Origin: Treponemataceae bacterium
GTDB taxonomy: Bacteria; Spirochaetota; Spirochaetia; Treponematales; Rectinemataceae
Assembly (NCBI GenBank): GCA_963678065.2
Contig: CAXXVZ010000003.1
Span: 1,184,001-1,248,000, forward strand
Direction of reading: 5' to 3'
DNA length: 64,000 nucleotides
Part shown: one piece after another, positions 1-55,470 of the stretch
How positions within the stretch are numbered: the stretch's first letter is position 1
Layout of the letters: the number at the start of each line of letters is the position of its first letter
Notes under the pieces: generated by a model
What the model saw: the letters and a program-made list of their open reading frames with translations, nothing else
What the model was told of the DNA's origin: nothing
The model's database searches: none
Program-made: the position numbers and the translations under genes

Positions 1-482
1 TCGATACGGAATCGGGTGAATGAATCCATGATCCCCGCCAGGAACAGCCTCTGGAATCCCTTCGTCGAAAGGAATACGGAGATCGCGGCGATGTTGAAAA
101 GACCGGAGACCGCCGACGACTCGTCGCCCGTCGCAGGATCGAGGATCGAGGCGGAGCCGAATCCCGAGACCGGTGAGAGATATCCCGCGGCGAGGGAAAG
201 CGAGGAGAAGAGGAGGGTCAGGAAGAAACCCGTCACCGCCCCCGCGAGGAATTCACCGACAAGGGTCAGAAGGTAAGCGGACTCGCTCGCCGGGATGGAG
301 TAGCCCGCGGCCGCCACTGCCGGCATGACGGCGGCGGCCGAAAGGAGGGCGATCCCCGCCTTCGCCGCGCGGGGAATTCCCGGCCCGGAGAAGAGAGGAG
401 CCGTCGCGACGATGCCGGCGATCCTCGCGACCACGCAGGGGAAGATCAGGGCATCGGCGCCGGGGGCGAAGGGAAGTTCCAT
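1..482 (-). CDS. fliR: Flagellar export gate protein FliR (5' part; runs off the window edge)
   Basis: Not in the ORF track. Manual translation from ATG at 482: MELPFAPGADALIFPCVVARIAGIVATAPLFSGPGIPRAAKAGIALL...LVGEFLAGAVTGFF...GFGSASILDPATG, matching FliR motifs (R-x-x-G...APLFS...IP...K, E-x-x-x-G, DP). Starts 1 nt after the fliQ stop. Confidence 0.9.
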   Translation of the reverse strand, partial: MELPFAPGADALIFPCVVARIAGIVATAPLFSGPGIPRAAKAGIALLSAAAVMPAVAAAGYSIPASESAYLLTLVGEFLAGAVTGFFLTLLFSSLSLAAGYLSPVSGFGSASILDPATGDESSAVSGLFNIAAISVFLSTKGFQRLFLAGIMDSFTRFRI

Positions 483-483
483 G

Positions 484-753
484 TCAGCGCGCCATCGACG
501 GGATGAGGGCGAATATCTGTCGGGTATAGTCCCCGAGACTTCCGAGAATCCAGCCGCCGAGCAGGGCCAGGATGAGAAGCACGGCGGCGAGCTTCGGAAC
601 GAAGGAGATGGCCTGGTCCTGAACCGCGGTCACGGCCTGGATGATGGCGGCGAGGAGGCCGGCGAGGAGGGCAGCCCCGAGCACAGGGGCGGACAGTATC
701 AAAATTTTGAAAAGTCCCGAACGGAGGAGGGCCGCGAAATCCGGTGCGTGCAT
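484..753 (-). CDS. fliQ: Flagellar export gate protein FliQ
   Basis: 89 aa hydrophobic protein with QAVTAVQDQAISFVPKL (FliQ QAxTQIQEQTLxFVPK motif); lies between fliP and fliR. Confidence 0.95.
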   Translation of the reverse strand: MHAPDFAALLRSGLFKILILSAPVLGAALLAGLLAAIIQAVTAVQDQAISFVPKLAAVLLILALLGGWILGSLGDYTRQIFALIPSMAR

Positions 754-766
754 CTTCCCGACCTCC

Positions 767-1600
767 TCACATGAAGGACTGTACGAGCTGCCGTGCCAAG
801 AGTCCCCAGCCGTCGGCGAGGACGAAGACGGCCAGCTTGAAGGGCAGGGAAATCATCGCGGGAGGAACCATGACCATGCCCATGGACATAAGGATGGCCG
901 CGACGACCATGTCGATGACGATGAAGGGTATAAAAAGGAGGATACCGATGCGGAAGGCGACTGTCAGCTCGTGGAGGGCGAAGGCCGGAACGAGGACATA
1001 GGTCGGAACCTCCGCCAGGGTCGCGGGTTTGGGCAGGCCCCTCATCGACATGAACATCCTGATGTTGTCCGGACTCTCTCGCATCTGGTTGTACATGAAG
1101 AGACGGAACGGCTTTTCGGCCTCAGACCAGGCTTGGCCGCTCGAGATGCTCCCCTCGGAGAGCGGCTTCAGGGATCTCTCGTAGACTGTCGTGAAGGTCG
1201 GCCACATGACGAAGACTGTGAGGATGAGGGCGAGCCCGGCCATGATCTGCGCCGAGGGGGCCTGCTGGAGCGAGAGGGCGCGTTTCATGAAATCGAGGAC
1301 GATCGATATCCTGAGGAAACTCGTCGCGAGGATGAGGATGCTCGGCGCCACGGCGAGGACAGTTATGAGGAGGATGAGCTCGACCGATTGGGCGTTTCCG
1401 CTCCCTCCCGAGACCCCCTGTATATTCAAGTCGACAAGAGGAAGTTCCGAAAGGGTGGATGTATCGCCTTTTGCTCCGGCTCCGCGGGCCGCAGAACGCC
1501 CCGCGCTCCCCGGAGCAGCCGCAAAAGCCGGCGTCGCGGCGAGAATGAGGAGGAAAAAGAGAGAGATGCAGGCGATCGGGCGGAGTGCTCCTCGCTTCAT
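767..1600 (-). CDS. fliP: Flagellar export gate protein FliP
   Basis: Signal peptide, then LAVAPSILILATSFLRISIVL, PAFALHELTVAFRIG, IPFIVIDMVVAAILMSMGMVMVPPAMISLPFKL, DGWGLL. Confidence 0.97.
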   Translation of the reverse strand: MKRGALRPIACISLFFLLILAATPAFAAAPGSAGRSAARGAGAKGDTSTLSELPLVDLNIQGVSGGSGNAQSVELILLITVLAVAPSILILATSFLRISIVLDFMKRALSLQQAPSAQIMAGLALILTVFVMWPTFTTVYERSLKPLSEGSISSGQAWSEAEKPFRLFMYNQMRESPDNIRMFMSMRGLPKPATLAEVPTYVLVPAFALHELTVAFRIGILLFIPFIVIDMVVAAILMSMGMVMVPPAMISLPFKLAVFVLADGWGLLARQLVQSFM

Positions 1601-2358
1601 CGATCTCCCCCTTTCCGATATTTGTCGAGTCTCCCTCTCTGGGCAAAGAGGATGCCGCGGGCTGCATCTCCGGCGCCGGAAGATCCACTGCCAACTCCGC
1701 GACCGGCGTCCCGGGGTTTTCCCGCCACCGCGCCCGCCCCTTTCCTCCCAGGCCCCGAGGCCGAGAGAAGGCGGCGAAGACTGAGGCCGAGGGAGTGGGA
1801 AAAAGAGCCGGACGAGGCTCGGCCCCGGATGGGCGGGGCTGATTTTGCGCGGCGCAGGAGATCCTGCACGAGTTCGGGATCATCCAGAGTATCGATGAGA
1901 CTGACCGAGGATTCGGAGGTCGCGACGAGCCATGCCTTGGATCCGAGACAGACGGCGTAGACGGCTTTCCCCGGGCCGAGGGCTGCCGAAGCCGCCACCT
2001 TGATCGGGCTGTCTCCCTCATCGGCGCGCGGCGAGGACTTCCGGACAAGGACTATGGCCAGATAGACTCCGCCGGCGAGGAAGAAGAGGACGATGACGAT
2101 GCGAAGGAGAGATGATGATCCCGGAGCGGAGCCTTGTTTCGCGGGGTTCCCTGCCCCAGCCCCATCGAGAAGGATGGTCTTTTCCTCTTGCTGGCCAAAG
2201 ACTGCTGCGCCCGCGGTCGCGTTGCCGGTGCCCCCGACGGCGGCACTGGACTGGGCGCAGACGAGGCTCAAAGGAAGGACGAGCGCGAAAAGACAAAGAA
2301 TGAGAGCCTTGGATTTCAAAAAATCCTCCCCTTGCAGCGGCATGATCCGTTCACCCAA
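1597..2358 (-). CDS. fliO: FliO/FliZ-family export gate chaperone (start may be ATG at 2343)
   Basis: Signal-like N-terminus, one TM helix, then IKVAASAALGPGKAVYAVCLGSKAWLVATSESSVSLIDTL (FliO pattern). Stop overlaps the fliP ATG (ATGA). Confidence 0.85.
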   Translation of the reverse strand: MGERIMPLQGEDFLKSKALILCLFALVLPLSLVCAQSSAAVGGTGNATAGAAVFGQQEEKTILLDGAGAGNPAKQGSAPGSSSLLRIVIVLFFLAGGVYLAIVLVRKSSPRADEGDSPIKVAASAALGPGKAVYAVCLGSKAWLVATSESSVSLIDTLDDPELVQDLLRRAKSAPPIRGRASSGSFSHSLGLSLRRLLSASGPGRKGAGAVAGKPRDAGRGVGSGSSGAGDAARGILFAQRGRLDKYRKGGDR

Positions 2359-2436
2359 GGGCCATCCTGACCCTGATCAAGAAACGGCCCGAACGGAATC
2401 TGCCCGCGCCCCCTTCAGTTCCGGAGCGCTTCAAGT

Positions 2437-3948
2437 TTACTTTATGGCCCCGAAGGATGCAAGCGAAACGCCTTTTCCGCTGCCGGCGCGGGCGAGACAG
2501 CCCCATGCGGCGGGGACAGACCCGTCGAGCACGCAGAGTTCCCGGATTTCCGTCCGGACGCCCGCATCCGCGCAGGCGGCATATTCTCCGTATTCCATGC
2601 TCATCGGGGGGCCGGCTACCTTGCGCAGAGGCAAGAGCCGGCGCATAGCCTCCCCCTCCACGAGCCAGGCAAGTCTTTCGGAGCTTCCCTCGCTGAAACA
2701 GACGTCGAAATTGAAACTGAAATAGTGTTCGGGAAGATCGTGCACAAAACAGTTCCCCGCGCTGATTCCCGGGGACATTCCTCCCGGGGGCACAGAGAGG
2801 GGCGCGGGAAAAACATGAAAGGCGACGAGGAAGGCCGCTGTCCAGGCGAGCGCGAACTCCTGGATACAGAGTGAGGCGAAGGGGTCGAAGCCTGCCAGGC
2901 CGGGATCGAGGTCCGCGGAAGCGATGAGGGCATCGGCGAGCCGGGGGCCGAGGATGAGGCCGGCGTTTCCTTCCTGACCGCCAGGGCAGGCAAATCGGAT
3001 TCCTGTCACCCGGTCCCGGTGGCTGACCGACCACCCCGTCATGCCAGGGTCGGCCACGGCTCCCTCATCCCGGGTCGCGACAGACAGAAGGGCAATCTTC
3101 ACATCGAGACCCGATGCCTTCGAGAAGGCATCCGACAAGCCCTCCTCGTGGCGGCTGACCCTCGCCGCGAGGATGCTCCGATAGAGATCTCCGAACGACT
3201 GTCCTTCTTCTGGTTCCCGTATTCTGAGGACATCCCTCTCGCCTAGATGCCTCCACTGCGCCGCGTCTACGTCGAGCACCCCGATAACCGGGCGCAGGGG
3301 AACAGGCACAGGGCATGGCGACGGGTAGGAAGAGGGACGCGCGTAGGCGCCGAGGCCCCGGGGCAGGGCTGCCGCAAGCACAATATATCCAATAAAACTA
3401 CTTTTATATATATCTATTTGTGCACACAAACAGATACTGTCAAAACGATAATCCATTTCAGGAAAATAGCTTGCCTCTTTGTTCCTTTCGACGGAAAAAT
3501 CCATGCCGAAGGCTGGAGGCAGGGCGCACAATACCGCATCCCGAAGGATTCCATCCGTCTTTTCCATGACCTCGGACTCGAGGAGGCTGAGAGCCCGTTC
3601 GAGCCTGCCGCAGCCTCCCGGGCCCTTGCCACCCCCGAGCAGCCCGTCAAGAACGAAAAACGTGAGGCCGGGATCGAAGGACACGCGCAGCGACACCGTC
3701 AGACCCGAAGGGTGGAGCGTCGAGCCGGCGGCAGCGCTGCAGACTTCGAAGCCAAGACTGTAGGGAAAAAACACTGCTTCATCAGGGAAGGCCGAGACCG
3801 ACGACAGGACTGCCCTTACGGCCGAACCAGACAGTTCCGGAAACCTTGGCGCCACGGACTCGGCAAAACCTTCGGCGAAGAGGATTCCGCGGCCCAGAAT
3901 CCGTTCGGTCTCGACTCCGGGAGCGCCCAGCGCGGACTCCAGCCTCAT
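2437..3948 (-). CDS. Divergent C-ring protein, apparent FliM-FliY(FliN) fusion lacking the CheY-binding N-terminus
   Basis: FliM middle-domain motif LDGLLGGGKG...RALSLLESEVM; SpoA-like VPLRPVIGVLDVDAAQWRHLGERDVLRI; a second CheC-like block (LSDAFSKASGLDVKI...GLILGPRLADALI...CIQEF); a degenerate SpoA-like tail (SMEYG...ELCVLD...FG). Occupies the fliM-fliY position before fliO. Confidence 0.65.
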   Translation of the reverse strand: MRLESALGAPGVETERILGRGILFAEGFAESVAPRFPELSGSAVRAVLSSVSAFPDEAVFFPYSLGFEVCSAAAGSTLHPSGLTVSLRVSFDPGLTFFVLDGLLGGGKGPGGCGRLERALSLLESEVMEKTDGILRDAVLCALPPAFGMDFSVERNKEASYFPEMDYRFDSICLCAQIDIYKSSFIGYIVLAAALPRGLGAYARPSSYPSPCPVPVPLRPVIGVLDVDAAQWRHLGERDVLRIREPEEGQSFGDLYRSILAARVSRHEEGLSDAFSKASGLDVKIALLSVATRDEGAVADPGMTGWSVSHRDRVTGIRFACPGGQEGNAGLILGPRLADALIASADLDPGLAGFDPFASLCIQEFALAWTAAFLVAFHVFPAPLSVPPGGMSPGISAGNCFVHDLPEHYFSFNFDVCFSEGSSERLAWLVEGEAMRRLLPLRKVAGPPMSMEYGEYAACADAGVRTEIRELCVLDGSVPAAWGCLARAGSGKGVSLASFGAIK

Positions 3949-4328
3949 AGGGCTTCCCTCTTGCGTTTTTCCGCCACTCTCGCCTCTTTCTGCCTGCGGT
4001 CGACCAGGCGTTCGAGGACGAGCCGCTCTGTGCGGGCCTCCCCGTAGAGTCCCAGAGCGGAAGCCAGCCCCTCTTCCGCCCCGGCTCTCTGCGCTTCGAG
4101 GGCGAGCCGCTCGGTTTCCTTCTTCTCGATAAAGGCCCCGAGGTTGTCGATCGCCGAGAGCGTTTCGGCCGCCGGCCTCTCACCGGGCGGGAAATGGGAA
4201 TTTTCCGAAAGTCGATCCCGGATTCCCGCGAGCCTTCCCGAAACCTCGGCGACCCGCATGCCTGCGAGATCCTCTCTGTATTCCCTGAGCTCATGCATCC
4301 ATTCAGGAAGGGGATCGCCGGTTTTCAT
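3945..4328 (-). CDS. fliJ: FliJ-like coiled-coil export protein
   Basis: 127 aa helical protein directly after fliI (ATGA overlap); LRE+REx...ERLVLERL pattern resembles FliJ. Confidence 0.7.
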   Translation of the reverse strand: MKTGDPLPEWMHELREYREDLAGMRVAEVSGRLAGIRDRLSENSHFPPGERPAAETLSAIDNLGAFIEKKETERLALEAQRAGAEEGLASALGLYGEARTERLVLERLVDRRQKEARVAEKRKREAL

Positions 4329-5662
4329 GCTTTGGTTCCACCATTGACTTCTGTATGTCTGAAAATAGACAACATTTCATCCATGATTGCGTCAAGCCCG
4401 AAGCTTTCACGCCTTTCCTGGGCCAGGAAGCTGTCGATCCGGGGCTTCAGGAGGATCGCTTCGTCGACTTCCGCGTTCGATCCGCGCACGTAGGCGCCCA
4501 CAGCTATCATATCTTCGTACCGCTCGTAGACTGCGAGAGTCTTCCGTATCCGTTTCATGAGGAGGAGTTCGCCGCTCTCCGTCACCGCAGTTTCGACCCT
4601 GGATACCGATTTGAGCGGGTCCACGGCCGGATACTGGCCGCGCTCGGCGAGACTCCGCGAGAGCACGATGTGGCCATCGAGCATGGACCGGAGGGCGTCC
4701 GCGATCGGCTCGTCGGGATCGTCCCCCTCCACCAGCACGGAATAGATGCCGGTTATGGAGCCCGAATCTGAAGTCCCGGCCCGCTCCAGAAGGCGCGGCA
4801 GGAGGTCGAAGACGCTGGGTGGATAGCCCCGGGCGGAGGCCGGTTCGCCGGAGGCGAGACCGATTTCGCGCTGCGCTTTCGCGAGCCGCGACAGGGAATC
4901 GAAGACAAGGAGGACATCGAGCCCTTGCTCCCGGAAGTACTCGGCCGCCGCGGTGGCGAGGAGGGCTCCCCTGATCCGGGCCAGCGCGGGGCTGTCCGAG
5001 GTCGAGACGACGACGACGGAGCGGGCCAGTCCTTCCGCTCCGAGTTCGCTCTCCACGAACTCGCGGACCTCGCGTCCCCTCTCTCCGATGAGGGCGATCA
5101 CATTGACGTCGGCCTTGCCTCCCCGCGCCATCATGCCGAGGAGAGTGCTCTTGCCGACGCCGGAGCCCGCGAAAACGCCGATCCTCTGGCCCAGGCCGAG
5201 GGGAACCATGCCGTCGACAGCCTTGACGCCCGTGAGGAAACGGCTGTCTATCCTCCTGCGCGACAGAGGTTCGGGAGCGGCCGCCCTGAGATTCCGGTAT
5301 TCGCCTTCAGTCACAGGGGGAAGGCCGTCCAGCGGCCTTCCCCGGGAGTCGATCACCCGTCCGAGAAGGGAGGATGACATCGCGACGCCGGCGGCGAGGC
5401 CGCTCGCGATGACGGGGCATCCGATTTCGATGCCCTCCATGCTCTCGTAGGACATGAGGCGGACGCTGTCCACGCCGAGTCCCACGACTTCGGCTTCCAT
5501 GGAGCGGCCGGTCTGGGGAATCACGATCCGGCACAATTCGCCGAGGACGGCCCTGGGACCGCGGCTCTCCACGAGAAGGCCGCGAACCATCGTGACCCGG
5601 CCGGTGTGGAGGATGGGATTGGCGTTCGTGGCCGCTTCGATAGCCGGCGCAAGGAGGCCCAT
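4325..5662 (-). CDS. fliI: Flagellar/type III export ATPase FliI
   Basis: Walker A GSGVGKST, LIGERGREV, VFDSLSRLAKAQREIGL, GYPPSVF, LLERAG, LDGHIVLSRSLA, YPAVD. Start set at ATG 5662 behind GAGGGTGA. Confidence 0.96.
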   Translation of the reverse strand: MGLLAPAIEAATNANPILHTGRVTMVRGLLVESRGPRAVLGELCRIVIPQTGRSMEAEVVGLGVDSVRLMSYESMEGIEIGCPVIASGLAAGVAMSSSLLGRVIDSRGRPLDGLPPVTEGEYRNLRAAAPEPLSRRRIDSRFLTGVKAVDGMVPLGLGQRIGVFAGSGVGKSTLLGMMARGGKADVNVIALIGERGREVREFVESELGAEGLARSVVVVSTSDSPALARIRGALLATAAAEYFREQGLDVLLVFDSLSRLAKAQREIGLASGEPASARGYPPSVFDLLPRLLERAGTSDSGSITGIYSVLVEGDDPDEPIADALRSMLDGHIVLSRSLAERGQYPAVDPLKSVSRVETAVTESGELLLMKRIRKTLAVYERYEDMIAVGAYVRGSNAEVDEAILLKPRIDSFLAQERRESFGLDAIMDEMLSIFRHTEVNGGTKA

Positions 5663-5667
5663 CGCGA

Positions 5668-6540
5668 TCACCCTCTTGAAGCCGCGGCGCCGAGGTCCGC
5701 GACAATCGGTCCGGGCGCCGGCCCGCGCAGGACAGTCTCCATGGCTGCGAGCATCGACTCGATCCGCGCGTCGATCCACCCGGAAGATGTCTCGAGGACG
5801 CAGCCGCCGGGCTGAATGGCGGGATCGGCCTCTATCCGCACTCCGCTCGAGGCAATCCCGACTCCCGGGGCGGCGGAAGTTTCATGGCCGAGGGCGGCGC
5901 GGACAGCCTCGAGGTCGGCGGGGGAAACCGAGAGAAGGAGGGGTCGGGCGTTCCCGAGGAGGGAGAGGAGTCTGGGAACTGTTTCCGCGACGACAGCGCG
6001 GGAGTCGGCGCAGGCGCCACCCACAATCTTGCGCGCCACGAGGAGAGAGAGCTCGATGAGTTCGGCTCCGGCGTCCCTGATGGCGGAGCTCCGGGTCGCC
6101 TCCGCCCGCGAGTGGATGGCCTCGATCGAGGCGACGATGGAGCGCGCCCGATCCATGCCCTGGGCGAAACCCCGCGCTTCGCCTTCGGCGCGGACTTTTT
6201 CACGTTCCAGATCCGCCTGTCCCCTGGCAGTCGCGAGCAATTCATCGGCCTCGCGGCGCGCCTCGCCGAGAATGCGGGCGGTTTGAGCCTCCATATTCGC
6301 CATGGACTCAGCTTCATACCGGGCGAGTCTTCCGCGGATTTCCTTTTCCGCGTCGGAGAGGGCCTGGGCGCGGGCTTCCTCGTAGACAAGGATTGCCTGT
6401 TCGCGCCACTGTGCCTTGAAAATCCCGATCTCGCCGAGAGCTTCCGACTCGGCGTCGAAAGCGAAAGCCTCCGTCCGTTCCGGCTTCACGTCCGCTGTCG
6501 GGTACGGCGCGTCGCCTTCCGGTGAGTGCAGCGTGCTCAT
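5668..6540 (-). CDS. fliH: Flagellar export ATPase regulator FliH
   Basis: GxxxG-type repeat (EGEARGFAQG), C-terminal DPAIQPGGCVLETSSGWIDARIESML; spirochaete-like PTAD...FKAQW N-terminus. Confidence 0.92.
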   Translation of the reverse strand: MSTLHSPEGDAPYPTADVKPERTEAFAFDAESEALGEIGIFKAQWREQAILVYEEARAQALSDAEKEIRGRLARYEAESMANMEAQTARILGEARREADELLATARGQADLEREKVRAEGEARGFAQGMDRARSIVASIEAIHSRAEATRSSAIRDAGAELIELSLLVARKIVGGACADSRAVVAETVPRLLSLLGNARPLLLSVSPADLEAVRAALGHETSAAPGVGIASSGVRIEADPAIQPGGCVLETSSGWIDARIESMLAAMETVLRGPAPGPIVADLGAAASRG

Positions 6541-7238
6541 TGTTTTTCGGTCGCCCTGCCGCCGGCTCGGGCCTCGGCCCGGCCCGCCTTCCGCAGAGCC
6601 TCCCTGATGGCCCTGGCGATGCCTGGATGGCCCGAATCGAGCTCACCCATGATTCTCCTGCCCGACTGGCCGTCGACGCATTCCAGGATGCGGGCGAGGG
6701 ATTCGGGGCCGGATTCCGTTCCGGAATCCGGGGATTTCCTCCCATCGGGGCAGGAGGCTTCTTCTCTCGCTGTCCTTCCCTTTCCCGCGGGGCCGAGCCG
6801 GGTCTCCAGCACGCGCTCCACAGTCCTGACAGTTTCCGGGGCCGCCCTGTCGATGGAAGCAATGCGCCGCGCGATGTCCGATTGCATGGCTGCGGGGAGA
6901 TTGCGCAGGACGAAGGCCGCCCCTTCCGGCTCCATTCTGGAAAGCACGAGGGCTATGGTCTGAGGATGTTCGGAGCCCACAAGTTCGAGAATCCGCCCGG
7001 GATCGGCCTCTCCGGAAGCTTCCGTTGCCCGGTTCCTGTCCATGTGACCGCAGAAGGACCTCAGGGCATCGTACTTTTCGTCCTGATCGATGCAGTCCAG
7101 ACAGGAGATCTCGGCGGCGAGGCACTCTACCTCGGAGGGCGCGAGATGTCGGAAAACCTCCGCCGAGATGTCGGAGCCCAGTGTCACGAGGAGAAGGGCC
7201 GCCTTCCTGCGGGAACCCTGCGCGTCGCCGCCACTCAT
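6537..7238 (-). CDS. fliG: FliG, C-terminally truncated (N and middle domains only)
   Basis: KAALLLVTLG...AEVFRHL, EHPQTIALVLS, IARRIASIDR...VERVLE, ARILECVD. Ends where the MFxF motif and torque domain should begin. ATG at 7238 overlaps the fliF stop; stop overlaps the fliH ATG. Confidence 0.88.
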   Translation of the reverse strand: MSGGDAQGSRRKAALLLVTLGSDISAEVFRHLAPSEVECLAAEISCLDCIDQDEKYDALRSFCGHMDRNRATEASGEADPGRILELVGSEHPQTIALVLSRMEPEGAAFVLRNLPAAMQSDIARRIASIDRAAPETVRTVERVLETRLGPAGKGRTAREEASCPDGRKSPDSGTESGPESLARILECVDGQSGRRIMGELDSGHPGIARAIREALRKAGRAEARAGGRATEKQ

Positions 7239-8704
7239 GATTCGTTTTCCTCGCTGATCCACGAGCGGATGAGTCGGGCGACCTCGGCAGGGTCCTTGCG
7301 CGCCAGCTCGGCCGCTTCCTCCTGCAGACTGGCGCGGCGCCGCTCGAGAAGCTCGGTGTCGTCGGGGCTCATCCCCGCGCCGTCGCGCCCGGCTCCCGCG
7401 CCGGAGTTACGCGCGAGGCGGGCCTTCGTCAGGGAAACGACAAGAAGCACAAAAAGCACAAGAGCGAGGGCCGCGGCAGCCACGAAACCCGTCCGGTAGA
7501 GCCTGTCCGAATCCGCCTTGGCGAAATACGCCGCGTCCTCTGCTTTGAACTGGGCTGTCCTGTCGAAGGGGATGTTGCGGACAGTGAGCGAGTCGCCGCG
7601 CGCGGGCTTGAAGCCGACAGCGTCGCGGATGAGTTCCTCTGCCTGGGAGAGCTCGGCCGCCGGAATGGGGCTGTACTCCCTCTCTATCCCTCCGCGGGGA
7701 TTCACGAGGGGCTTCCCTTTCATGTCGTAGGAGGTTTTCCACAGGCCGTCTATGTTGACCGAGACGGAGATCCTGCCGATGAAGGGCGTGGATTCTTCGT
7801 CGATGCGGCCTGTGCCGGGCGCCGCGCTGCCGACCGCCGGGCCTGACGCATCCGTCTCGATCCTGACGGCGAGGTCGCGCACACGGTCGGCAGTGTAGAT
7901 CTGCTGGAGGGTTTTCAGGACCTGAGCCCGGTAACGCGATTCCATCTCGCGGACAAGCTTCTGCCGGGCGACCGTCTTTTCCAGATGGCCGAGGGGGGCT
8001 GATTCCGTCGCATCGTCCAGGACGACTCCGTCGGAATCCGTTATGACGACATTGTCGGCGGAGAGCCCTTCCACGGCGAAGCAGAGTATCCTGCGCACGC
8101 CCGCTATCTTGGCGGGGTTGCGCGCGAAATCGGAACCGGACTTCGTCTGGAGGACGACCGAGGCGGTGACCGGGTTCTGGTCTTCGCTGAAGAGTTCCTT
8201 TTCGGGCATGACGATGGCGACGTCGGCCCTCTCGATATCGTCTATGGACTCGATGTGGCGCTTTACTGCGGCCGTGACGGCTCTTCTGAGATTGACGTTC
8301 CGTTCGAAGTCGGTCGCTGTCCAGCGCTCCATATCGAAGATCGCCCAGGGATCTGTGCCGGTGGGCAGAAGGTCGTCGCGGATGAGGAGGGATCTCGCCC
8401 TGAGGGCGGAAGCCGCGTCGGGCGCGTAGAGGAAGTTTCCGTCGCGCAGCTCGTAGCTCACATTTCCGGCGTCGAGGCTGTGGGTCATCCTGACGAGGAG
8501 GCTCTGGTCTTTGACGGGGGCTCCGAGAATGCGCACCGAAGCCCGGCCCGCCCCGCCGCCCGGAAAAGCTCCGGCCAGGGCGAGAATGAGGATGGCGAGG
8601 ACGAGAACCGCCGCACAGGCGGCGATGAGCGCGATGATGTTGAAGCCGGACTTCTGCCTGAGATCTTTGATCCGCGCGGCGAGTCCATCGATGAATCCGT
8701 TCAT
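7235..8704 (-). CDS. fliF: MS-ring protein FliF (shortened)
   Basis: Two TM segments; DPWAIFDMERWTATDFERNVNLRRA, IVMPEKELF, VTASVVL, AVEGLSADNVVITD, AVGFKPARGDSLTV, and C-terminal ARKDPAEVARLIRSWISEE (spirochaete FliF tail). Confidence 0.93.
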   Translation of the reverse strand: MNGFIDGLAARIKDLRQKSGFNIIALIAACAAVLVLAILILALAGAFPGGGAGRASVRILGAPVKDQSLLVRMTHSLDAGNVSYELRDGNFLYAPDAASALRARSLLIRDDLLPTGTDPWAIFDMERWTATDFERNVNLRRAVTAAVKRHIESIDDIERADVAIVMPEKELFSEDQNPVTASVVLQTKSGSDFARNPAKIAGVRRILCFAVEGLSADNVVITDSDGVVLDDATESAPLGHLEKTVARQKLVREMESRYRAQVLKTLQQIYTADRVRDLAVRIETDASGPAVGSAAPGTGRIDEESTPFIGRISVSVNIDGLWKTSYDMKGKPLVNPRGGIEREYSPIPAAELSQAEELIRDAVGFKPARGDSLTVRNIPFDRTAQFKAEDAAYFAKADSDRLYRTGFVAAAALALVLFVLLVVSLTKARLARNSGAGAGRDGAGMSPDDTELLERRRASLQEEAAELARKDPAEVARLIRSWISEENES

Positions 8705-8732
8705 TTCCCCTCCCCCGCAAGCGTTCCGGAAA

Positions 8733-10106
8733 CTACAGAATGTACTTGCTCAAATCCTGCCTCTCCGCGAAGTCGATAAATTTCGAGTCGACGTAGGCCG
8801 CGTCCACCACGACGCTGGTCCCCGCGCGGTCGGGAGCCTCGAAGGAGATGTCCTCGAGGAGTCTCTCCATGACCGTGTGGAGGCGCCTCGCGCCGATGTT
8901 TTCGGTGGTGGCGTTCGCCTGGGCGGCGATCGAAGCGACGCGGGAAACCGCTTCCGGCGAAATTTCGACACTGAGGCCTTCGGTCGCGAGGAGCTCCACG
9001 TACTGGGTCACGAGAGCGTTCTTCGGCTCGGTCAGTATCCTCTCGAAATCCCTGGCCGTGAGGTCCTCGAGCTCCACCCTGATGGGAAAGCGCCCCTGTA
9101 GCTCGGGTATGAGGTCTTCGGGCTTGGAGACGTTGAAGGCTCCCGCGGCTATGAAGAGGATGTGGGAGGTGTCGACGGGCCCCCACTTGGTCGAGACCGT
9201 CGAGCCCTCCACGATGGGCAGGATGTCCCGCTGCACGCCCTCGCGGGAGACGTCGATGCCGCCTGCGCTCCGGCCTTCCCGGTTGGCGATCTTGTCGAAC
9301 TCGTCGATGAAGACGATGCCCATCTCCTGGACGCGGCGCCTCGCCTCCTCGGCGGCGTTGTCGGAATCGACGAGCTTGTCCATCTCCTCGGCCTCGAGGA
9401 TGCGGCGGGCATCCGCCACGTTCACGGCTTTCTTCTTTTTCTTGCCGCCGAACATGGATGTGATGGAGCCGATGGCGGCCTCCATATCCTCCATCTTCGC
9501 GCCGGAGAATATTTCGAGCCCCGGCTGCTGAGCCTGGATGTTCAGTTCGACCTCGCGCTTGTCGAGGGCCCCTGAATGGAGAAGTTTGCGGAATTTCTCG
9601 CGGGAGTCCGTCTGAAAGCCGGTATCACCCGCGACATAGGTGGCCTGGGTGGGGCCTATGGGCTCGACCGAACCCTTGATCCCCGGCAAAAGGAGGTCGA
9701 GAAGCCTCTCCTCGGCCCTGCGCTTCGACTCCTCCTGCACTCCCTGGCGCATCTCTTCCTTGACGGCGGCGATGCCGGCGGCCATGAGGTCGCGTATCAT
9801 CGATTCGACATCGCGCCCGACATAGCCGACCTCGGTGTACTTGGTGGCCTCGACCTTGATGAAGGGGGCCCCGCAGAGCTTGGCGAGGCGCCGCGCGATC
9901 TCGGTCTTGCCGACGCCGGTGGGACCGATCATGAGGATGTTCTTGGGGATGATGTCGGCGCGCATGTCCTCGGAGAGACGCTGGCGGCGCATGCGGTTGC
10001 GCAGGGCGAGGGCTACCGCGCGCTTCGCCCTGGCCTGGCCGACGATGTAGCGGTCGAGTTCCCCGACTATCCATTTCGGGGTCATGCTCTCGAAGGAGAC
10101 GCTCAT
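8733..10106 (-). CDS. hslU: HslU ATP-dependent protease ATPase subunit
   Basis: [56 protein letters not shown]-terminus. Confidence 0.98.
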
Positions 10107-54219: not shown

Positions 54220-55224
54220 TCAAGGACTGCCGCGGGAGCTGCCCGAAGCTGCGACGGGATGGTCGCCGGCGTCGGCACCGATGCTCCCGCCGAGCCGTCT
54301 GCCGATGCGGGCCGCGAACCAGCCGGTCAAGTCCGCGATCACCTCATCGCGGTTGGTTTCATTCAGCGTCTCGTGGCGACCGCCGGGATAACAGCGGGCC
54401 GTGAAATCCGAAAGTCCGAGCGAGGCCAGTCTCTCTCTCTGTTCGGCGTAGCCCTTCTCCTTCCCGACTACCGGATCATCCGAACCGCAGAAGAAATATA
54501 CCGGCAGCGATTTCGGCACCCTGTCGAGGAAACCGGGGGCATAGACGAGCTTCGTTCCTTCGAAAACATCCCTGTAGAAGGAATAGCTGCAGGTAAAGGA
54601 GCAGGCCGGATCCGCCATATAGGCGGCGACGACGGCGGGATCGCGGGAAATCCAGTCGCAGGGGGTCTTCGCGCCGGAAATGGAGCGCGCATAGTCGCCG
54701 AAGGTCATGGCCTTGGGAAGCTTGCCCGGGGCTCGTGCGCCCTTGAACAGAGTCCCGAGCTCTATGATGATCTTCCCTCCGAGGTTCAGGACCATGGTTG
54801 GCTTTGAGGGAGGGGCCGAGAGGACGCAGCCGGCGAGATCGGAGCCGTAGAGACCTATGAAGGCCAGGCCGAGGAGGGAGCCGAAGGAGTGCCCCAAATA
54901 GTACAGGGGCAGACCGCTGTTTTCCTTCCGCGCCGCGAGTCCGAGTTCGTGGAGGTCGTCCACGACCCGCCTGAATCCTCCGGTTTCGGCGAGGAAACCC
55001 CAATTTCCATCTTTATCCGTCTCCCCGTGGCCGCGGAGGTCGGGAATGCAGACGGCCAGGCCGAGCCCCGAGAGGACCGAGGCGAGGCGAAGGTAGCGCG
55101 CTCCGTGCTCTACCATGCCGTGGGCGACGAGCAGAACGGCCTTCGGCTGTCCTTCGGGAAGAATTCGGCGCACGAATATGCGCTTTCCGTCTGTCGCCGC
55201 GAACTTGAATGTATCGGATCCCAT
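54220..55224 (-). CDS. Alpha/beta hydrolase (lysophospholipase/monoglyceride lipase-like)
   Basis: HGMVEH..RY, DLRGHG, GHSFG nucleophile elbow, G..DPV, RHE..NE. Start at ATG 55224. Confidence 0.92.
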   Translation of the reverse strand: MGSDTFKFAATDGKRIFVRRILPEGQPKAVLLVAHGMVEHGARYLRLASVLSGLGLAVCIPDLRGHGETDKDGNWGFLAETGGFRRVVDDLHELGLAARKENSGLPLYYLGHSFGSLLGLAFIGLYGSDLAGCVLSAPPSKPTMVLNLGGKIIIELGTLFKGARAPGKLPKAMTFGDYARSISGAKTPCDWISRDPAVVAAYMADPACSFTCSYSFYRDVFEGTKLVYAPGFLDRVPKSLPVYFFCGSDDPVVGKEKGYAEQRERLASLGLSDFTARCYPGGRHETLNETNRDEVIADLTGWFAARIGRRLGGSIGADAGDHPVAASGSSRGSP

Positions 55225-55349
55225 GATATCCCCTTTTCGGTCTTCCGGGAGGAAGAGCAATTCCGGCCAGGACGAGGACCGCAGCCAAAATCTTACACTC
55301 AGCAGGACCTGCAAGCAAGTTGGGTGGCGAGATTGCCCAGAGCACTGCA

Positions 55350-55414
55350 TCGCGGGGCTCGCCAAGATCGGGCCTCGCCCCGAACAGGGGCTCGCGGGGC
55401 TCGCCAAGACCGGG
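55350..55414. repeat. 23-bp direct repeat (1 mismatch) in a divergent intergenic region
   Basis: TCGCGGGGCTCGCCAAGATCGGG at 55350-55372 and TCGCGGGGCTCGCCAAGACCGGG at 55392-55414. Confidence 0.8.
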
Positions 55415-55470
55415 GCGGCCAGCTATCATCGGAAAAAAGAGGAATGCATGCCTTATCTCCGGAGGTATTT

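Follow-up and report, generated by a model that had tools for sequence, protein, structure and literature searches.

A FliG lacking the torque sub-domain in a motorless, rod-less remnant of a spirochete flagellar export system

What purpose can a FliG serve when it stops short of the part that drives rotation? The question is raised by a 64,000-nt stretch (the window) on contig C3 of a spirochete genome, here G000, with other G labels given to its relatives. In this window a gene at 6537..7238 on the minus strand encodes a FliG of 233 residues. The G000 assembly has 5.27 Mb in 5 contigs and is 99.94% complete, with a contamination estimate of 6.7%; it was compared with 68 relatives, of which 29 have a canonical FlhA and 39 have none, with G024 and G042 as flagellated references and G065 as a flagellum-free relative. 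The original prediction, a FliG cut before its motor part, is right about the truncation, but it stops short of what our results point to, namely a trimming of the whole machine with a role in export or regulation.

As shown by Pfam, alignment and a structure model, the protein consists of a FliF-binding N domain (residues 10-68), an EHPQ middle domain (77-148), a disordered linker, the ARM-C helices (177-215) and a short tail, with neither MFXF nor the torque sub-domain. FliG_N (PF14842) matches residues 10-84 with E 2.7e-20 and FliG_M (PF14841) matches residues 81-148 with E 1.3e-26, while FliG_C (PF01706) has no match at E<=1 in this frame nor in FliH; this is the Pfam outcome that had been predicted for a 233-residue protein with the N and middle domains, and it supports the claim that the torque domain was deleted and not interrupted. 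The TIGR00207 score is 119 bits against a cut-off of 227, and the protein falls outside the motor-type FliG family. An alignment with 7 full-length FliG (335-357 aa) reveals a loss of about 37 residues between positions 66 and 79, namely the helices past the FliF-binding core and the PFDF motif, in agreement with the shortened N-to-middle linker noticed earlier, and a gain of about 16 residues in the linker from the middle domain to ARM-C. The likeness stops at the residue before MFXF, and therefore about 100 C-terminal residues are gone. However, the original prediction had counted ARM-C among the lost parts, which puts the order wrongly: according to the part of a review accessible to us (PMC7355467), ARM-C precedes the MFXF hinge and the torque helix comes after it, thus ARM-C (helices 177-215) is retained and the torque sub-domain is lost.

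The EHPQ stretch E90-Q93 and R125 are invariant across 40 aligned FliG sequences, and in an AlphaFold2 model from this 40-row alignment the three helical modules have pLDDT 78-90 (ARM-C helices 82-86) and are joined by low-confidence linkers, with a mean of 72. As described before, the fliG TGA overlaps the fliH ATG (ATGA at 6537-6540), where flagellated G024 has a gap of 30 nt; moreover the fliG ATG overlaps the fliF TGA at 7235-7238. The 90% cluster of this FliG has 3 members, on other contigs, and one independent contig from run X7 spans window positions 1-9918, where 12 substitutions and a single 9-nt insertion that keeps the frame set it apart from G000 over fliH-fliG-fliF. Short contigs from the RNA run X18 lie over fliG, fliJ and other parts, and we rejected them as a sign of transcription.

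No full-length motor-type fliG is found elsewhere in the genome. The sole FliG_M match in G000 is the fliG of the window, against 3-5 matches in flagellated relatives, and the lone FliG_C match (C5:75929, E 1.2e-6) falls within a 367-aa protein that has neither FliG_N nor FliG_M. We considered this protein as a split-off torque domain and rejected it, for it is a separate protein at another locus. Its gene adjoins one of 143 aa (G000:C5:74697-76228, L001:269-1800); the two share a repeated helical unit weakly resembling part of MotA (NF006583, E 0.013), and the FliG_C-like domain at the end of the second gene persists in the motorless G000. In several flagellated relatives (G001:C55, G013:C27, G033:C1, G037:C25, G028:C186 and others), frames of 620-780 aa in which a FliG_M match comes after one to FliM are apparently FliM-FliG fusions outside the main operon; no such frame was found in G000.

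The stator is missing as well. MotA_N and MotB_plug have no match in the 99.94%-complete G000 and are matched in flagellated controls, and the only MotA_ExbB match is an exbB adjoining exbD; with the torque sub-domain gone and motAB not found, as had been anticipated, this FliG cannot drive rotation. In flagellated G042:C19 and G024:C10 motA and motB lie at a separate locus outside the main operon, and in G012 a MotA_N match is within the operon region. Flagellin, the rod/hook C-domain and FliE are also without a match in G000, each being matched in 2 or 3 flagellated controls, and tblastn with the G024 operon did not find FlgB, FlgC, FliE, FlbB, FliK, FlgD, FlgE or FliL in G000. Inside G000 contigs the genes flanking three other flagellar loci are direct neighbours. 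A short junction at 55224..55462 of the window stands where G024 has a flagellin block of two flaB and following genes. G000 has 3 CheW-domain matches, the same number as flagellum-free G065, where flagellated controls have 13-14; those of G000 lie in the one remaining chemosensory cluster (G000:C5:699748-705831), which is laid out as in G065 and has an output other than the flagellum. Genes resembling cas3, cas4, cas1 and cas2 were recognised by eye at G000:C3:1135955-1139910.

The FliG cut is one of several coordinated cuts, which also affect FliF, FliM/FliY and FlhB. In FliF (7235..8704, minus strand, 489 aa) about 75 residues of RBM3 are replaced by a short loop and the C-tail is retained; the residues missing from the middle of this third ring motif are presumably the beta-collar, and the same loss is found in two relatives of 500-501 aa. 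Only 28 nt (8705..8732) separate hslU from fliF, at the place of flgB-flgC-fliE in flagellated relatives. On the other side of fliG, all on the minus strand, lie a divergent FliH (5668..6540, 290 aa, 32% identity to G024), an intact FliI export ATPase (4325..5662, 445 aa, 60%), a FliJ-like protein (3945..4328, 127 aa) with a weak TIGR02473 match (E 8e-4) in the expected position, a divergent FliM-FliY fusion (2437..3948, 503 aa), FliO (1597..2358), an intact FliP (767..1600, 65%), FliQ (484..753) and FliR (1..482, running off the window edge), with FliO, FliQ and FliR recognised by Pfam. The fusion occupies the place of flbB, fliK, flgD, flgE, fliL, fliM and fliY in relatives, and it is this position that identifies it, since its matches are weak alone: E 1e-5 pairwise and 1e-4 by profile to FliM around the FliG-facing GG loop, and E 2e-3 over 162 columns by profile to FliY. 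For each half, Atlas features (0.88 and 0.84) point to a FliM-like fold, and at 44-46% identity there are full-length relatives with 540 and 555 aa. The GG loop segment is retained and both CheY-binding peptides (LSQ-EID) are absent. Neither FliM nor FliMN_C of Pfam matches the fusion, therefore a C-ring that docks FliH is uncertain; a genome-wide FliM/FliY profile search gave E 0.87 only and no match for the fusion, and its single-sequence fold has pLDDT 30.

Past FliR, contig C3 continues with flhB, flhA, flhF, a degenerate flhG and fliA. FlhB has no C-terminal domain, stopping 3 residues before the NPTH cleavage site with its stop codon overlapping the flhA start; a stand-alone gene for the missing domain was not found in G000 and is present in 2/2 flagellated controls. 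FlhA retains its membrane motifs, while its cytoplasmic substrate-docking region has diverged and carries insertions. FlhF keeps its GTPase motifs, with conservation like that in flagellated kin (59% vs 62%); FlhG has lost the Walker A motif and keeps the N-terminal DQAxxLR segment, which has an activator role. The fliA frame (G000:C3:1177716-1178531) starts with VDSDLRS, like the start of a membrane-protein gene before G024 fliA, which suggests the scar of an in-frame deletion. The export core, that is FliP, FliQ, FliR, FlhA and the membrane part of FlhB, is detected in full; FliF, FlhA and FliI have their best scores with flagellar or shared models, and the operon has no needle or secretin gene. 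Judged by these genes, the remnant is a novel form of flagellar type III system and not an injectisome.

Is this a peculiarity of one genome? Among the best 120 of 1005 FliG matches there are at least three further clusters with a similarly short protein: P0002 (229 aa, 66% identity to G000 FliG), P0003 (3 members, each 171 aa) and P0004 (171 aa), the latter two ending after the middle domain with ARM-C absent. Their loci were found neither in genome contigs (2 scans) nor in metagenome contigs (1 scan), and 9 fliG loci from one genome-contig scan were dropped as unrelated; the divergent remnant system was in no other of the 68 family genomes. The larger finding is a flagellar export core that has neither motor nor rod and is conserved.

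The retained genes have changed quickly. With G024 as the reference, G000 and flagellated G042 have identities of 34 vs 90% for FliG, 32 vs 75 for FliH, 38 vs 71 for FliR, 32 vs 66 for FlhB, 26 vs 78 for FlhG, 46 vs 81 for FlhA, 60 vs 79 for FliI and 65 vs 77 for FliP. No such extra divergence is seen between G000 and G024 in TopA, HslU and HslV, and FlhF is, besides fliA, the only retained flagellar gene without acceleration. Between truncated lineages the identity is uneven: in FliG it is 63-65/72 in the middle domain, 41-44/59 in the N domain and 5/16 to 6/19 in the linker, and in FliF 161-162/177 in the ring motifs, 27-31/35 in the C-tail and 1/17 in the new loop. Such fast divergence together with uneven identity implies a burst of change and then constraint on the new form. 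Strain differences over fliH-fliG-fliF are 7 silent and 5 changing (pN/pS 0.25, p 0.017, from one contig of depth 4.7), and a test on columns conserved in canonical proteins is significant in only 3/6 FliG pairs and 0/3 FliF pairs. The export gate, the ATPase and FlhF have remained intact, under purifying selection.

The rival that survives best, though we consider it unlikely, takes the block as a slowly decaying relic, whose genes persist as part of the transcript that lies between the division cluster/hslU on one side and fliA on the other, the in-frame trimming merely keeping the coupling to a needed fliA. The acceleration of most retained proteins fits with decay, and so do the FliG lengths that differ among relatives (171 vs 229-233 aa), the Walker A motif lost from FlhG, the promoter and ribosome-binding site lost before flgM (see below) and a sister clade that lives without the flagellar block. 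Yet about 14 reading frames are free of stop or frameshift, domain identity near 90% stands beside saturated loops with the pN/pS of 0.25, and a single deletion from hslU to fliA would solve the coupling, just as it stands in the sister genomes.

The place of G000 in the family bears on this point. In an RpoB tree, which covers 30 of the 41 genomes searched, is based on one gene and has one long branch, G000 is sister to 9/9 FlhA-negative family members included (support 98/95), which form a clade of their own (support 92/89). In 6/6 FlhA-negative genomes examined, hslU is followed directly by fliA. With this sister position and adjacency, G000 looks like a surviving halfway state, while the sister clade seems to have taken the other exit, losing FlgM with the whole machine and retaining sigma-28. 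Compared with this flagellum-free sister group, G000 alone retains FlgM together with sigma-28.

As the sole known flagellar export substrate found in G000, FlgM merits particular attention. Both FlgM (PF04316) and the FliA/WhiG model are above cut-off. FlgM is present in 27/29 FlhA-positive relatives and 0/39 FlhA-negative ones, a co-occurrence that amounts to one or two loss events or shared descent, not to 39. FliA is found in 67/68 relatives and thus has a non-flagellar job, for which reason we rejected its retention alone as evidence for a remnant. The flgM of G000 itself is altered: a sigma-28 promoter and ribosome-binding site precede the gene in 24/25 parsed relatives (2 loci unparsed) and are absent here, and the protein is 41% identical to those of relatives, which are 69% identical to each other; it may be poorly expressed or in the course of being lost.

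What would sigma-28 control without a flagellum? The promoter motif was read from flgM of flagellated relatives, with a GCCGATA-type -10 and a spaced T[AC]AA-like -35. In G000 it is found at C3:323980 before a LysM/M23 gene, which is followed by a sigma-70-family gene, an arrangement that suggests a sigma cascade. The same promoter precedes the LysM/M23 gene in 27/27 FlhA-negative loci that have upstream DNA, 25 of them with the exact motif and 2 with a single change (one locus lacking upstream DNA and one further locus were left out), in 3/3 additional loci and in 16/17 flagellated loci (11 GCCGATA, 5 TCCGATA), against a background of 16/1518 windows. The promoter lies about 10 nt before the start codon of the LysM/M23 gene (G000:C3:323980-326121), leaving little or no leader. 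A second site, C3:799277, precedes an unnamed gene and an amidase gene (G000:C3:797152-799277); the box stands before the same unnamed gene in G014 and G015 and in 0/20 flagellated relatives. In flagellated relatives this gene is coupled to an upstream gene instead, and a rewiring in the non-motile clade is possible. Genome-wide the strict pattern is near chance (2 matches vs 1 control; 19 vs 10), and use was made only of sites with conservation across genomes; we dropped C3:1138118, C3:998213 and other sites of this type, which lie in or before no credible gene. A precedent exists in B. subtilis, where, as far as the accessible text of PMC4793158 goes, sigma-D controls cell-separation autolysins.

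Gene content, the coordinated cuts, their occurrence in relatives, the presence of FlgM and FliA and the conservation of the promoter motif are what we observe. From these we propose that the remnant is a late-locked, motorless FlgM exporter gating sigma-28, a reading to which we give about an even chance. In this proposal FliG would be an adaptor of two or three modules that sits with its N domain on the FliF tail, contacts the FliM-FliY fusion by its middle domain and keeps FliH-FliI-FliJ beneath the FlhA/FliPQR gate, while FlhF would place the machine. The earlier suggestion that FliG could bridge FliF and FliM accordingly fares well in its main part: a bridge from FliF to the FliM-like protein is probable, as the FliF- and FliM-binding parts are conserved together with the matching partner surfaces (the FliF C-tail and the GG loop segment of the fusion), and what has to be corrected is the domain detail, ARM-C being retained. 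FlhB without its cleaved domain would fix the late specificity with no need for FliK or a hook; FlgM would be exported to the periplasm, and the freed sigma-28 would transcribe the LysM/M23 gene with the downstream sigma-70-family gene, and possibly the amidase operon, all with a predicted role in remodelling the cell wall as far as the LysM/M23 and amidase genes are concerned.

The design matches a state engineered in Salmonella. In the portion of PMC13344023 (2026) available to us, rod-hook-less cells without the cleaved FlhB domain and Fluke send FlgM-Bla to the periplasm with no need for FliK, and an early substrate is no longer exported. Against the FlgM exporter, the same text has FliE activating the FliP pore and a selection strain that kept fliE and needed extra basal bodies, yet FliE is absent from G000. 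Also against it, most retained proteins evolve much faster than in flagellated kin, and deleting flgM alone would be a cheaper route to free sigma-28; the FlgM evidence, moreover, comes from G000 only among the truncated lineages. The altered flgM with its lost promoter, a C-ring that is hardly recognisable, an FlgM-FlhA pattern set by shared descent, the few significant pairs in the column test and a strain comparison from a single low-depth contig weigh against it as well.

Could the machine instead export other, non-flagellar proteins to the periplasm, with FlgM incidental? We find this rather improbable. The gate and ATPase motifs are retained while the FlhA docking region has diverged and gained insertions, and there is a precedent in Lysobacter enzymogenes OH11, a bacterium without a flagellum, whose residual flagellar T3SS is proposed to export enzymes in the accessible part of PMC7688988. 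However, no new gene has entered the operon, no candidate substrate or chaperone was found, and there is no conduit across the outer membrane. A similarly improbable account makes the remnant a polar landmark or assembly checkpoint, in which FlhF, FlhG, FliF, FliG and the FliM-FliY fusion would set the place of division or send a signal to some regulator, while exporting little or nothing. It gains from the unaccelerated FlhF with its GTPase motifs, from the DQAxxLR segment of FlhG and from C. jejuni, where mutants of the MS- and C-ring form minicells (PMC6946799) and FliG without its C-terminal domain still supports signalling (PMC3760246), as far as these two sources were accessible. But FliH and FliI, dispensable for the division role in C. 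jejuni according to the same part of PMC6946799, are retained in G000; FlhG, through which that role is exerted, has no ATPase motif here, and the FlhB cut and the retention of FlgM are left unexplained. Finally, an assembly artefact, with the missing genes in gaps or the ORF a sequencing error, is most improbable: in spite of 5 contigs and the contamination estimate, the X7 contig and the cluster members agree with the truncated ORF, and the flanks at the lost loci are joined inside contigs of a nearly complete genome.

Returning to the FlgM exporter, a fuller form of it, which we hold tentatively and somewhat short of an even chance, would see in G000 a living intermediate of spirochete flagellum loss, pared domain by domain to a dedicated FlgM-exporting sigma-28 switch, with a natural late-locked FlhB-deltaCCD state without FliE and with FliG as a stator-free adaptor parallel to the injectisome sorting platform. 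A natural deletion series common to at least three species sorts the domains of FliG, FliF, FliM/FliY and FlhB into those for rotation or axial assembly and those for export. Evolution thereby tests, independently, the model of 2026 that has the gate kept in early mode by the cleaved domain of FlhB. It also offers an order of flagellum loss, in which the export core and FlgM stay tied together while sigma-28 has other targets, and a minimal type III exporter for rebuilding in the laboratory. A phylum-wide preprint (10.1101/2025.07.04.663154), in the part accessible, says of non-spiral spirochetes that they have hardly any motility genes. PMC12199754 reports a rotor protein in 11% of non-motile species, and our results bear on the role of such rotor proteins in non-motile genomes. 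We found no account of a motorless export remnant in the literature searched, which comprised papers open without subscription. FliA and FlgM were reportedly described by Tlapak in 2017 in the non-flagellated Legionella oakridgensis, with a possible overlap with the present finding.

Among known systems the closest is the spirochete basal body, with its flgB operon and the FliG2 of Treponematales: the G000 block has the same place after hslU and the same gene order, and it shares the N and EHPQ middle domains of FliG, FliF, FliH/I/J, FliO/P/Q/R, FlhA, FlhF and FliA. What it lacks is the torque sub-domain, the FliF collar, the FlhB C-domain and FliE, as well as rod, hook, FliK, filament and stator; its FliM and FliY form a degenerate fusion, and the second FliG paralogues of relatives were not found in G000. 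With the rod-hook-less flhB-deltaCCD flk-null strains of Salmonella, as described in the consulted part of PMC13344023, it shares the lack of rod and hook, an FlhB without the cleaved domain and, probably, a dispensable FliK and FlgM as the late substrate. Unlike those strains, the G000 form is natural, conserved, also without FliE and the FliG torque domain, and known from its genes. The FlgM/sigma-D circuit of B. subtilis likewise sets a sigma-28-family factor over cell-separation autolysins, according to what is accessible of PMC4793158. There, export reports the completion of a flagellum, while G000 builds none. FlgM secretion in that bacterium reportedly goes through the export apparatus of the flagellum. 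Flagellar export genes in non-motile bacteria, as in G000, are known from Lysobacter enzymogenes OH11 (PMC7688988) and Buchnera (PMC3459982); to the extent that these accounts are available, Lysobacter, for which enzyme secretion is reported, retains flhB as well as flgD, and Buchnera retains the basal body, both unlike G000, and neither text, in that extent, mentions trimming of FliG, FliF and FlhB at the level of domains. The NF-T3SS/injectisome core of Myxococcales, as presented in the accessible part of PMC3459982, is a flagellum-derived export core without motility parts, as in G000. Unlike the injectisome, the G000 core arose in place, out of the flagellar operon of a spirochete, with its best matches to flagellar models, and SctU of the injectisome retains the C-domain that FlhB of G000 does not. 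The collarless ring and the adaptor-like FliG resemble SctJ and SctK of the injectisome.
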